A stretch of DNA of 64,000 nt from Patescibacteria group bacterium (GTDB lineage: Bacteria > Patescibacteriota > Minisyncoccia > 2-02-FULL-40-12 > GWA2-44-9), in the NCBI GenBank assembly GCA_038064515.1, contig JBBTSY010000005.1, positions 50,093 through 114,092 of the forward strand, written 5' to 3'. Under the pieces are notes generated by a model. It was not told where the DNA came from. It did not search any database and saw nothing but the letters and a program-made list of their open reading frames with translations. A program made the translations under genes and the position numbers. Shown here piece after piece: positions 38,456 to 43,348 of this stretch; the first letter of the stretch is position 1, and each line of letters opens with the position of its first letter.

Positions 38456-38757
38456 TATTTTCTCAAAACTGGCTTAACTTTTACAAAATGACCTTTGGTA
38501 TCTGGCACCTGACCAATTAACAACTCGTTGAGTTTCTCATCCATGATAAATGAAGGGCGCGACTCATCAGGACGGAGGACATTCACTAAGCCGGTCGTTT
38601 GATAGAGCGGCGCCACCTGTTCCGTATCCACTCGTTTAAGTGTTTCAATGTAATCCAAAATCGAAGAGAGCTCTTTTTTGAACTTTTCTTCTTCCTGACT
38701 CGTCAACTTGATACGCGCCAGCGTGGCGATATGTTGGACTTCCTTATCGGAAAGCAT
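38455..38757 (-). CDS. gatC: Amidotransferase subunit C
   Basis: [40 protein letters not shown]. The start was trimmed to the internal Met. Confidence 0.75.
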
Positions 38758-39772
38758 GATTAGTGATGTTGTTGATTTCCTCCACGATACCATAACTGTT
38801 GCAGTGTTTCAAAACGCCGAGGTATGATTGGAGCGACTGTTTCGGAACTCCAGCTGTGACACTTCTCAAAATCCTCTTTTTTGTCTTCGTCCGCAACGTC
38901 CGGCAGTATGGCCGCACGACATATCCAAGAAAATCAATTCCTTGCCGATAACTTCGTACAATAATCTTCTCGGGGTGCAGGGTAAGCTTAAGCTTATGCT
39001 CAAGAAATTCCCGGAATAACGAAACGAAAATAACTGCTTCATCACGACTCTCGATAAGTATAATGAAGTCGTCGCAATACCGAATGTAACAATGGAGCTT
39101 CAGCGTGTGCTTTGCAAACTGATCCAGTTCATTCAAATATATATTTGCAAAAAGCTGGCTAGTTACATTCCCAAGTGGCAATCCTCTTCTGCTCTCCTTT
39201 TCAAAACTTTCTAAGATGCGCCGCACAAGCCACATCACGTCAGGATCAGCCACTCTTTGTTCCATCAAGCGAAACAGAATTTCGTGATCGATAGAATCAA
39301 AAAACTTCTGTACGTCGCATTTCAGAGCAAAAATGTTTTTGCGATTATTTCTACTGAACTTGCGAGCAAACTCTTCTAACCGCGTAACACCGCGATGGGT
39401 TCCTTTACCCACCCGGCATGCGTAGGAATCAAAAATAAACAAACGGTCAAAGAGTGGGTACAAAACTCTGAAAATGGCCCGATGCAATACCCGATCACGA
39501 ACCGTAGCTTTGTGGATATGCCGCAGTTTTGGATCAGTCACATAAAATGGCGTATACTGACCGTGGGTGTATCGCCTATTCTGTAACTGTTCGTGCAAAC
39601 TAAAGAGTTCGTCTTCTAACGCGAAGGTAAATGCTTGTACATCGTGTCTTGATTGTTTGCATCGTTTGAATTCTTGCCACGCTGATACCAGATTCTCCAG
39701 GCTCGAGATTTGATTAAATAAACTATGTCCCTCATTAAGCCCCCCCCCAAGGATTCCGTTCCCCTCATTCAT
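38744..39772 (-). CDS. Diversity-generating retroelement reverse transcriptase
   Basis: VRDRVLHRAIFRVLYPLFDRLFIFDSYACRVGKGTHRG is the DGR-RT hallmark of the (fxDRVVxHA...SYAxRxGKGTH) type. Fingers/palm motifs include RYCDDFIIL (YxDD). The size is 342 aa. Confidence 0.85.
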   Translation of the reverse strand: MNEGNGILGGGLNEGHSLFNQISSLENLVSAWQEFKRCKQSRHDVQAFTFALEDELFSLHEQLQNRRYTHGQYTPFYVTDPKLRHIHKATVRDRVLHRAIFRVLYPLFDRLFIFDSYACRVGKGTHRGVTRLEEFARKFSRNNRKNIFALKCDVQKFFDSIDHEILFRLMEQRVADPDVMWLVRRILESFEKESRRGLPLGNVTSQLFANIYLNELDQFAKHTLKLHCYIRYCDDFIILIESRDEAVIFVSLFREFLEHKLKLTLHPEKIIVRSYRQGIDFLGYVVRPYCRTLRTKTKKRILRSVTAGVPKQSLQSYLGVLKHCNSYGIVEEINNITNHAFR

Positions 39773-40090
39773 AGTGTTTGTGTATTATATAAGGATATCT
39801 ATCACCTCGGACAGAAGATTCCCAAGCGAGATAAATTCGGTATCTATCGCAAAGTTGAAGATGCCACGCTTGATCTTCTCACGACTCTCATAACAGCTAC
39901 GTTCGAGTCGCGAGACCGCAAACACACTATTCTAGTCTCTGCGCGCATCAATGTGGAAGTATTAAAGTGGCTGGTGCGAATGATATACGAAATCAAAACA
40001 ATTCATTTGAGCCGATATATCGCTCTCGAATCTCAACTTCAGGAAATCTCTAAAATGACAAACGGCTGGATCAAATACCTCCAGCCGTAG
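39725..40090 (+). CDS. Avd-like accessory protein (four-helix-bundle / former '23S rRNA-intervening-sequence protein' family)
   Basis: The family is identified from the motifs YKDIYHLGQKIPKRDKFGIYRKVEDATLDLLTTLITA and RINVEVLKWLVRMIYEI. It is 121 aa long. It is encoded on the strand opposite to the RT and target, and its 5' end overlaps the RT start by ~48 nt. Confidence 0.65.
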   Translation: MSLIKPPPKDSVPLIHSVCVLYKDIYHLGQKIPKRDKFGIYRKVEDATLDLLTTLITATFESRDRKHTILVSARINVEVLKWLVRMIYEIKTIHLSRYIALESQLQEISKMTNGWIKYLQP

Positions 40091-40099
40091 TCATCGAAA

Positions 40100-40224
40100 C
40101 TTCTCACGAGCGCGGATGTTGTCGTTGCAGTTCTCGACACTGTTCCAGTTCACGTTGAGCTTGTCGTTGTCGCTGTTCCAGTTCACGTTCGGGACGTTGC
40201 CGTCCGAGTTCCGCGATCTTTTGC
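40100..40224 (-). repeat. DGR template repeat (TR)
   Basis: A non-coding copy of VR that is Asn-codon (AAC)-rich on the minus strand. It is identical to VR except at ~26 positions, all of which are A on the TR coding strand. Confidence 0.9.
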
Positions 40225-40465
40225 CTGATTCCGTCCATTCACCGGAAACCTTTTTCAGAGTTTCCTGTGTTACCGACTCGTATCGGAAGTTTTCCGAGGC
40301 ATACCTCGTGAGAACCAGACAAGCAGTTTCGGTATATATGGCAAACCGCTATCCCATAGGACCGGTTGTAATAGCCATTCGTAAGTATAAAACAAAAACG
40401 AAGGCCCCAACAGACTGAAAGTCCGCCGGGGCCAGGGAAAGGGAACAAGGGTGAAGGGAGAAGTG

Positions 40466-41227
40466 TTAGGCGGCCTGCTTCGCATCCGCCACCGAAACCA
40501 CCTCACGAGCGCGGATGTAGTCGCTGCAGCGCTCGACACCGCTCCAGCGCACGCGGAGCCTGCCGTGGGCGCTGTCCCAGTCCACGCCCGGGACGCTGCC
40601 GTCCGAGTGCCGCGATCCGGAGCAAAGCGTGTAGTTCTTGATGTCCAGATGGCCGCTCGTCTTGTAGTGGAACCACAGTTCCAGAAGCAGGCGCTCCAAG
40701 AGAGTCATCGTCGTGATGTCCCGCTCGGCGATCTTCTTGGCCGAGAGGTTCTTGAGCTCCTCGTCAGCTTCGACGCGAGGACGGCACCAGATGATGTACG
40801 GAGCATCTTTGACGGTTCGCTCGTCCTTGTCCTTGGGGACGGCCTTGTCCAGGGACTGGTCGGTGTACTTCCATCCACGCAAGCGCTCGACGCACTTGTC
40901 GAATGCCTGCTGGACGGAGATACCGGGAATCACCGCGACGCCCCAGCCGAAGCTGGAACGCACGGGAGGAAGTGAAACATGCGACAAGTCCACGACTACC
41001 CCGAAGACATCCGTGTAGAACTTCGTCCAGTCCGCCAAGAACGCGGCCGTGTCCAGGCCCGAGGCGTAGGTAACGCCGCCGTTGGCCCAGCCGTCATGGC
41101 TGATCTGCTGGGCTTTGTCCACCAGTATGAGCTCGCCGGACATGAAGCGCTTGGCGCGCTCCTGGCCGCCGATCTTGTTCCCAAGGTCCATGACCTGCTT
41201 GAGGGTCAGTCCATCAAAGTCGCTCAT
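40466..41227 (-). CDS. DGR target protein, C-terminal C-type-lectin/FGE-like variable domain
   Basis: 253 aa. The C-terminal LCSGSRHSDGSVPGVDWDSAHGRLRVRWSGVERCSDYIRAREV is encoded by VR. An AAGGAG SD lies 7 nt before the ATG. The gene is GC-rich relative to the rest of the window. Confidence 0.8.
   Translation of the reverse strand: MSDFDGLTLKQVMDLGNKIGGQERAKRFMSGELILVDKAQQISHDGWANGGVTYASGLDTAAFLADWTKFYTDVFGVVVDLSHVSLPPVRSSFGWGVAVIPGISVQQAFDKCVERLRGWKYTDQSLDKAVPKDKDERTVKDAPYIIWCRPRVEADEELKNLSAKKIAERDITTMTLLERLLLELWFHYKTSGHLDIKNYTLCSGSRHSDGSVPGVDWDSAHGRLRVRWSGVERCSDYIRAREVVSVADAKQAA
40499..40623 (-). repeat. DGR variable repeat (VR) at 3' end of target gene
   Basis: A ~125-bp copy of TR with substitutions only at TR-adenine positions. 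It lies within the last ~45 codons of ORF 40466..41227. A GC-rich inverted repeat (ggcggatgcgaagcaggccgcc) lies just 3' of it, an IMH/hairpin-like element. Confidence 0.9.

Positions 41228-41332: not shown

Positions 41333-43348
<2,016 letters not shown>

Follow-up and report, generated by a model that had tools for sequence, protein, structure and literature searches.

A conserved poly-G tract in the overlapping starts of avd and the reverse transcriptase gene: a candidate slipped-strand switch in a diversity-generating retroelement of Patescibacteria

The diversity-generating retroelements (DGRs) of the candidate phyla radiation (CPR) form, to our knowledge, one of the largest DGR groups known, and we know of no member of this clade that has been studied experimentally. 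In the Bordetella system, the accessory variability determinant (Avd) is needed for cDNA synthesis; a pentamer that binds the reverse transcriptase is among the properties by which the Avd family is defined. The DGR of Bordetella phage BPP-1 (mtd-avd-TR-brt; structures 4dwl and 8ub7) has all of its genes on one strand, with avd located before the template repeat (TR). Among CPR DGRs, 90% have architecture B3, which is TR-(avd)-RT with avd on the reverse strand and RT denoting the reverse transcriptase (Wu et al. 2018, NAR, PMC5758913, Figure 5). The DGR analysed here is located on a 64,000-nt stretch of a Patescibacteria group bacterium (assembly GCA_038064515.1, contig JBBTSY010000005.1, positions 50,093 to 114,092), which is referred to as the window and to which all coordinates apply. 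Its avd and RT genes start head-to-head in a common coding stretch of 48 nt, which contains a run of nine G on the RT strand (G9, corresponding to C9 on the other strand). We assign a probability of about 0.55 to the reading that this run is a slipped-strand-prone element on both strands, which sets the frames of avd and RT together and gates the mutagenesis machinery.

Several known phase-variable loci are suitable for comparison. In Haemophilus influenzae, the single gene lic1 carries a tetranucleotide repeat between alternative in-frame ATGs, while hifA and hifB have a common variable promoter, in which one repeat controls two divergent genes via promoter spacing. The DGR tract resembles lic1 in that starts in different frames upstream of the repeat lead to a full, an altered or no product depending on its length, but in lic1 the repeat unit is a tetranucleotide and only one gene is concerned. 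With hifA/hifB it has in common that one repeat serves two divergent genes, whereas the level of action would be the translation of a common coding overlap instead of promoter spacing. Homopolymer contingency loci were described for Neisseria (poly-G of pgtA, PMC2193922), Campylobacter (PMC6321876) and Bordetella pertussis (PMC1891110). Likewise, these have a G/C run of 7–13 nt near the 5' end of a coding sequence, near-identical genomes differ in its length with the gene in or out of frame, and interrupted, 'locked' versions occur in some lineages. The DGR tract differs from them in that a single tract, read on both strands, would gate two divergent overlapping genes, that these genes code for a mutagenesis machine and not for surface or modification functions, and that the hosts are uncultured groundwater Patescibacteria. 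DGRs, the B3 layout and the classical phase variation by homopolymers are already known; new is the single tract common to two divergent overlapping genes, as the proposed control of a retroelement-based diversifier.

The locus has the order target gene with variable repeat (VR), TR, opposite-strand avd and RT. With TR at 40218-40103 (-), avd at 39725-40090 (+) and RT at 39772-38744 (-), it matches B3, and in gene order, strand pattern and host group it is like the CPR B3 DGRs (PMC5758913), from which it does not differ as a DGR. The RT is 47–65% identical to hundreds of CPR B3-type RTs. For comparison, we used the best 80 related loci from species-representative genomes, which all belong to Patescibacteria, have RTs 47–63% identical to that of the window, comprise 433,884 nt and were recovered with the motif [LI]P[LI]GNVTSQ. 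In these, avd is detectable in 67 of 80 loci, and in 67 of 67 it is located on the opposite strand immediately upstream of RT. This outcome of the orientation check suggested in a first-pass annotation of the sequence, together with the 90% share of B3, makes its view of the antisense avd as a departure from canonical DGRs an overstatement, since the orientation is not special to this locus. The head-to-head overlap of the avd and RT starts and the homopolymer within it were not found described in the CPR-DGR literature searched, which covers the reverse orientation of avd and to which the main CPR-DGR paper (Paul et al. 2017) does not belong.

The open reading frame (ORF) at 39725..40090 (+), which codes for 121 aa and starts with MSLIKPPPKDSVPLIHSVCVLYKDIYHLGQKIPKRDKFGIY, is the true avd accessory gene of a DGR that is active. 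It had been proposed as an Avd-like four-helix-bundle protein in the first-pass annotation, and both the ORF with its N-terminus and the family were confirmed. The score against the bAvd-like family PF22296 of Pfam is 50.3 bits, which is above the gathering threshold of 40. The stricter NCBIfam model NF033474 (DivGenRetAVD) yielded 62.1 bits (E 4.9e-17), a value under its equivalog cut-off of 80 bits, and the model named for this check in the annotation, TIGR02436, also remained below its threshold (19.5 against 24). Searches of PDB chains by sequence, either with the single Avd or with a 27-sequence Avd profile, gave no meaningful match, so that a comparison of folds was needed. The AlphaFold2 (AF2) model, for which 27 homologues served as input, has a mean predicted local distance difference test (pLDDT) score of 90.5 and features a four-helix bundle of residues 14–119 (helices 14–29, 40–59, 63–89 and 95–119), preceded by a low-confidence N-terminal tail of residues 1–13 that includes the PPP. 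In Foldseek, the model groups with 23S-IVP and Avd bundles, and it matches the Avd of the Bordetella phage (4dwl) and the Avd chains in 8ub7, a DGR ribonucleoprotein, with TM scores of 0.74–0.86 and a root-mean-square deviation of about 1.7.

The RT gene (38744..39772, -) codes for 342 aa and was identified by RVT_1 (E 5.8e-25). It features LPLGNVTSQ and YCDD and thereby the motif pair of the DGR clade ([LI]GxxxSQ and YxDD). Among solved structures, the Bordetella DGR RT (8ub7_A, E 8e-38) is its best relative, with an alignment that begins at residue 16; residues 1–15, including the GGG, form an N-terminal extension outside of the aligned part. The homologous RT, the Avd fold and the adenine-specific TR-to-VR mutagenesis are shared with BPP-1, which differs in having no overlap of the avd and RT starts, no homopolymer and no N-terminal extensions bearing GGG and PPP. 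In the window, avd is antisense to RT, TR and the target gene, and the overlap of about 16 codons noted in the first-pass annotation was found to be exactly 16 codons of each gene (39725..39772, 48 nt, both strands). At its ends, each start codon is antisense to a CAT that codes for His16 of the other protein: the RT ATG (39770-39772) to that of Avd, and the Avd ATG (39725-39727) to that of RT.

The tract is located at 39740..39748 on both strands, one position off the 39741..39749 given in the first-pass annotation, which had described its presence and its coding of LGGGL and KPPP correctly. In RT it reads CTT GGG GGG GGG CTT (L-GGG-L, Gly9-11) and in avd AAG CCC CCC CCC AAG (K-PPP-K, Pro6-8), exactly antisense codon on codon, and the N-terminal peptides that span it are MNEGNGILGGGLNEGHSLFNQISSLENLVSAWQEFK and SLIKPPPK. 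It is the only G/C run of at least 7 in the 64-kb window. A base-composition model leads to expected numbers of 4.4 runs of at least 7 and 0.25 runs of at least 9. From the window by itself, a chance origin (p about 0.2) is thus only mildly improbable. The GC content of the window is 47.7% and not about 42% as previously noted, while that of the DGR core is about 42–45%.

A homopolymer of at least about 7 nt in the 5' coding region, at which a change of one nucleotide alters the frame, is characteristic of phase variation and is present here. When the tract was set in silico to G6, G9 or G12, Avd was full length (121 aa at G9) and so was RT from the first ATG (342 aa at G9). At G7 or G10, Avd was cut to 15–16 aa, while an RT of 340–341 aa started from a second ATG. 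This ATG (39766..39768, -) also precedes the tract, is in the +1 frame with respect to the first one, currently opens an ORF at 39616-39768 (-) and would enter the RT body at G7 or G10. At G8 or G11, Avd was truncated to 55–56 aa and RT was absent. An alternative Avd start past the tract was not found in the window.

Other roles of the tract in the window were considered. A role as promoter spacer is unlikely because the tract is downstream of both ATGs; a scan for sigma-70 promoters was uninformative (1 match vs 1.1 expected). That the tract is non-coding and merely separates two genes, neither of which would then start across it, was rejected for RT: there is no canonical start between the tract and the conserved N-terminus, and this reading is also contradicted by the conservation of the ATGs across the tract at nucleotide level. 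As a further observation, a direct repeat AATGAGGG(G/A) flanks the tract (about 39763-39771 and 39728-39736 on the RT strand). It codes for M-N-E-G and L-N-E-G in RT and for S-L-I and P-L-I in Avd, and was not seen among the relatives inspected.

An uninterrupted G-run of 7–13 at the avd/RT junction was observed in 65 of the 80 related loci. The lengths are 7 (2 loci), 8 (5), 9 (24), 10 (26), 11 (5), 12 (2) and 13 (1). Junction tracts account for 65 of the 72 G/C runs of at least 7 in the entire set, and the comparative data settle that the tract exceeds chance. Nearly all RT homologues have G-G-G followed by about four residues, a His and IFE.IISLENLF; in an alignment of 33 sequences picked for intact N-termini, the conservation of the residues corresponding to Gly9–Gly11 is 90% or higher. 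Where the N-terminus of an Avd homologue is complete, it has PPP ahead of PL[IV]H. The uninterrupted run is kept at RT identities of 50–60%, and interruptions are viable (L110; L050, L051, L060 and L080). One locus has a split junction (L043:1800-2001), with G13 by the avd start and, about 170 nt further on, C15 and then G11 by RT, which may result from duplication or rearrangement of the tract region.

As in the window, the starts in the relatives are on the far side of the tract. In every locus, the RT ATG precedes the tract by about 27 nt and is antisense to a conserved His codon of Avd, and the Avd ATG across the tract is in turn antisense to the conserved His codon of RT. Past the tract, the first codon for His is CAT in 62 of 63 RT genes and in 49 of 51 Avd genes. 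Together, these complementary codons comprise 111 CAT and 3 CAC, compared to a background of 615:283 in the same genes (Fisher p = 7e-14), indicating selection on the ATGs themselves. To bring the conserved RT ATG in frame, a shift of 0 is required in 21 loci, of -1 in 33 and of +1 in 10 (n = 64), i.e. the tract is in frame in 21 of 64 loci, has one G in excess in 33 and is one G short in 10. The same correction suits the Avd ATG in 51 of 54 loci. This agreement reflects a conserved antisense register and is not independent support, since it results largely from each ATG complementing an in-frame His codon.

In 26 of the 65 tract-bearing relatives, none of the RT starts ATG, GTG and TTG is in frame upstream of the tract. 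Nevertheless, the gene bodies are not decaying: after the tract, the RT ORF has a median length of 336 aa with one truncated case, and the Avd ORF has a median length of 117 aa. The 15 tract-less relatives served as control. They have a clean in-frame RT ATG in 13 of 14 evaluable loci (Fisher p = 9e-4 vs tract-bearing loci) and a clean Avd ATG in 10 of the 11 loci with detectable avd, and their avd/RT overlaps range from 2 nt (CATG) to 57 nt. Four of them (L047, L070, L073 and L083) are minimal head-to-head arrangements, in which a palindromic CATG is common to both starts and the overlap is 2 nt.

A second characteristic of phase variation is a tract that is polymorphic among near-identical genomes. 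This was found in the relatives, at DNA level in four species-level clusters. N-termini were compared within RT clusters of 90% identity, in which members have one body and differing N-termini across the Gly run; MGGGIIGH, MGGIIGH, MNQGSINLWGGGIIGH and truncated calls, for instance, occur in one cluster. A Hainich organism (cluster 8) has G10 on a 325-kb contig with 71x coverage (L096) and G9 on another contig (L097), with 0 mismatches in 3962 nt. In cluster 5, G9 (L100-L104; the protein is found on 15 contigs) and G10 (L106) differ by 0 mismatches in 3366 nt. In cluster 6, Yanofskybacteria from the Rifle aquifer, G9 (at least 24 contigs) and G10 (7 contigs) were each recovered from several samples; the two forms have 0 mismatches in 2999 nt, and one protein N-terminus implies a G11 form. 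Among the contigs of a third species (cluster 1), which are 98–99.9% identical, the tract is G9, G11 or, in interrupted form, G7TG3, and G10 is implied by N-termini. One contig of 1x coverage with 27 gaps and G5 (L105) was left out as unreliable.

The DGR of the window is active in its G9 state. TR (40103..40218, -; 116 nt aligned, 36 adenines) is identical across the public assemblies of the locus, which are metagenome-assembled genomes of Hainich groundwater Patescibacteria. By repeat alignment, the VR was located at 40502..40617 (-), at the 3' end of the target gene. TR and VR differ by 20 mismatches, of which 20 are at TR adenines; past the last A mismatch, ATCCGCGCTCGTGAG is common to both before the sequences diverge. 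Two VR alleles with 21 differing positions are present in the public assemblies while TR is invariant, indicating that the DGR has been diversifying recently. The two alleles are fixed in different wells or samples. In four public assemblies (L005, L008, L012 and L014), TR is present without VR, with an assembly break between the two; such breaks are to be expected if the VR is heterogeneous in the reads.

In the mechanism proposed, avd and RT are read outward from the common 48-nt stretch. Both reading frames cross the tract, since each start codon is on the far side from its own gene body. As the tract is a homopolymer, slippage during replication is expected and would from time to time add or remove a G, and a single such change would shift both genes together. 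With n = 9 (or 6 or 12), Avd and RT would be full length and the DGR competent. With n = 10 (or 7), Avd would be reduced to 15–16 aa and RT still be made via the second ATG, and with n = 8 (or 11), neither protein would be made. Because Avd is required for cDNA synthesis in Bordetella, only n = 0 mod 3 would then support mutagenic retrohoming. The tract would thus be a switch by which the hypermutation machinery is turned on and off, or set in its level, in a heritable and reversible way. It is placed in N-terminal tails of both proteins, where it could vary without harm to the folds; that these tails are dispensable is likely, judging from the alignment of RT to the Bordetella RT, which starts at residue 16, and the low confidence of Avd residues 1–13 in the model. 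The population of the window would sit in the both-on state (G9), which is consistent with the turnover of its VR.

The DNA side of the slipped-strand reading is observed directly, from the anatomy of the junction and the conservation of tract and ATGs to the length polymorphism, the intact gene bodies and the active DGR at G9. A useful slippage rate in vivo, the control of protein output by the frame and an adaptive benefit are the parts that we infer. The on/off switch suggested in the first-pass annotation gained strong comparative support from the conserved position, from lengths that vary between species and between near-identical contigs, and from the breakage of both frames. For the population of the window itself, which is G9 in 9 of 9 independent assemblies (consensus sequences), slipped-strand switching is suggested by analogy with the relatives.

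Several results weigh against a switch. No length variant was found in the population of the window, either in the 9 independent assemblies or in one match from a metagenome collection, all of which are consensus sequences; a gapped pattern scan of this collection for the locus, allowing tract lengths of 5–14, returned only the known H51 contig with G9. The in-frame share of the relatives (21 of 64) is about the one third expected under drift of the length without selection for the on state. Loci with one extra G are in excess (33 of 64, chi-square p = 0.002), which a simple switch would not predict and which is in line with recoding. In some relatives, alternative starts (ATG or TTG abutting the tract for RT, ATG just past it for Avd) lessen the dependence on the tract. 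Also, a given length repeats across many samples in the relatives (15 contigs with G9, at least 10 with G10), and any switching that occurs is so slow that a single state can prevail in a population.

The excess of the one-G-over state also speaks for programmed recoding, the main rival, which we regard as unlikely, if less so than the other alternatives. Here, stuttering of the RNA polymerase, or a +1 shift of the ribosome on GGG-G (RT) and CCC-C (Avd), would restore the frame, and the length of the tract would tune the level of the proteins without turning them on or off. For shifts of +1, CCC-C read by tRNA-Pro is a classic slippery quadruplet, and ribosomes stall at PPP. Recoding would also account for the intact RT and Avd bodies in the 26 of 65 species representatives that have no in-frame RT start, and for out-of-frame lengths that are stable over many assemblies (G9 on 15 contigs in cluster 5, G10 on 7 contigs in cluster 6). 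However, no upstream Shine-Dalgarno-like sequence, rare codon, structure or other stimulatory element was identified, the best-documented sites of transcriptional slippage are A/T runs and not G/C runs, and genomes in frame, including that of the window, need no recoding. The length differences between otherwise identical contigs suffice to change the frame at DNA level.

It is somewhat more doubtful still that the run has no regulatory role and is a by-product of overlapping genes that favour Gly-Gly-Gly and Pro-Pro-Pro tails, with alternative starts rescuing changes in length. The GGG of RT (at least 90%) and the PPP of Avd are indeed conserved at protein level among gene calls, their exact antisense arrangement in the window forces G9, both tails are outside of the folds, and in several relatives, a start directly adjoins the tract (ATG or TTG) or, for Avd, an ATG follows it. 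Dual coding predicts a fixed length and register, though, while the lengths of 7–13 ignore the frame, and neither the 26 relatives devoid of any in-frame RT start nor the Avd of the window, which has no alternative start past the tract, fit a rescue. Tract-less relatives lack both GGG and PPP, so that these peptides are dispensable, and the run persists uninterrupted at 50–60% RT identity even though interruptions are viable. An origin of the length differences in sequencing or assembly errors at poly-G, with the true tract always in frame, is very improbable. Homopolymers are error-prone, L097 stems from a contig with 9x coverage, and the discarded L105 (1x) has G5 and 27 gaps. In contrast, each length was recovered repeatedly (9 of 9 assemblies here, 15 contigs in cluster 5, at least 24 vs 7 contigs from several samples each in cluster 6), which makes error a poor explanation; in cluster 1, the variants co-segregate with strains defined by single-nucleotide polymorphisms, and out-of-frame lengths are found on high-coverage contigs of several hundred kb (L096, 71x).

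For most DGRs of Patescibacteria, we see an even chance that a conserved hypermutable poly-G in the 5' overlap of avd and RT is a single heritable switch, or a rheostat via frameshifting, for the whole hypermutation machine. Put differently, the case that a contingency locus is in control of a diversity generator is evenly balanced. If true, it would provide a simple and testable principle for the restraint and timing of DGR mutagenesis, in which one homopolymer frames RT and its essential cofactor, and only a fraction of cells or populations would be predicted to hypermutate at any time. For phase variation, it would be unusual that a single tract codes for poly-Gly on one strand and for poly-Pro on the opposite one. 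Such a principle would also explain the frequent truncation or omission of CPR RTs and Avds by gene callers. Where RT or avd of a CPR DGR is out of frame, the gene should not be called a pseudogene. In public gene calls of the locus, the RT is often shortened to 265 aa, or avd is omitted, because of the 5' overlap.

The target gene (40466..41227, -), an ORF of 253 aa, has no match in profile searches against Pfam and NCBIfam. Its G + C content of 60–63% extends across the whole gene and is not restricted to the VR, compared to 42–47% for RT, avd and the flanking genes. Directly downstream of its stop codon and the VR, about 70 nt beyond the VR end, a 14-bp GC-rich hairpin followed by a T-run was found (40403..40433, -), which could be an inverted repeat of the DGR type, an intrinsic terminator or both. 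An ORF of 100 aa antisense to TR (40116-40418, +) is called as a gene in several public assemblies and is almost certainly spurious. The DGR is located between ligA (41333-43327) and gatC-gatA, and 14 nt (38744-38757) are common to the end of RT, with its stop, and the start of gatC. Relatives have different neighbours, namely L21, RelA/SpoT, H+-PPase and S16, and the DGR cassette therefore moves as a unit.

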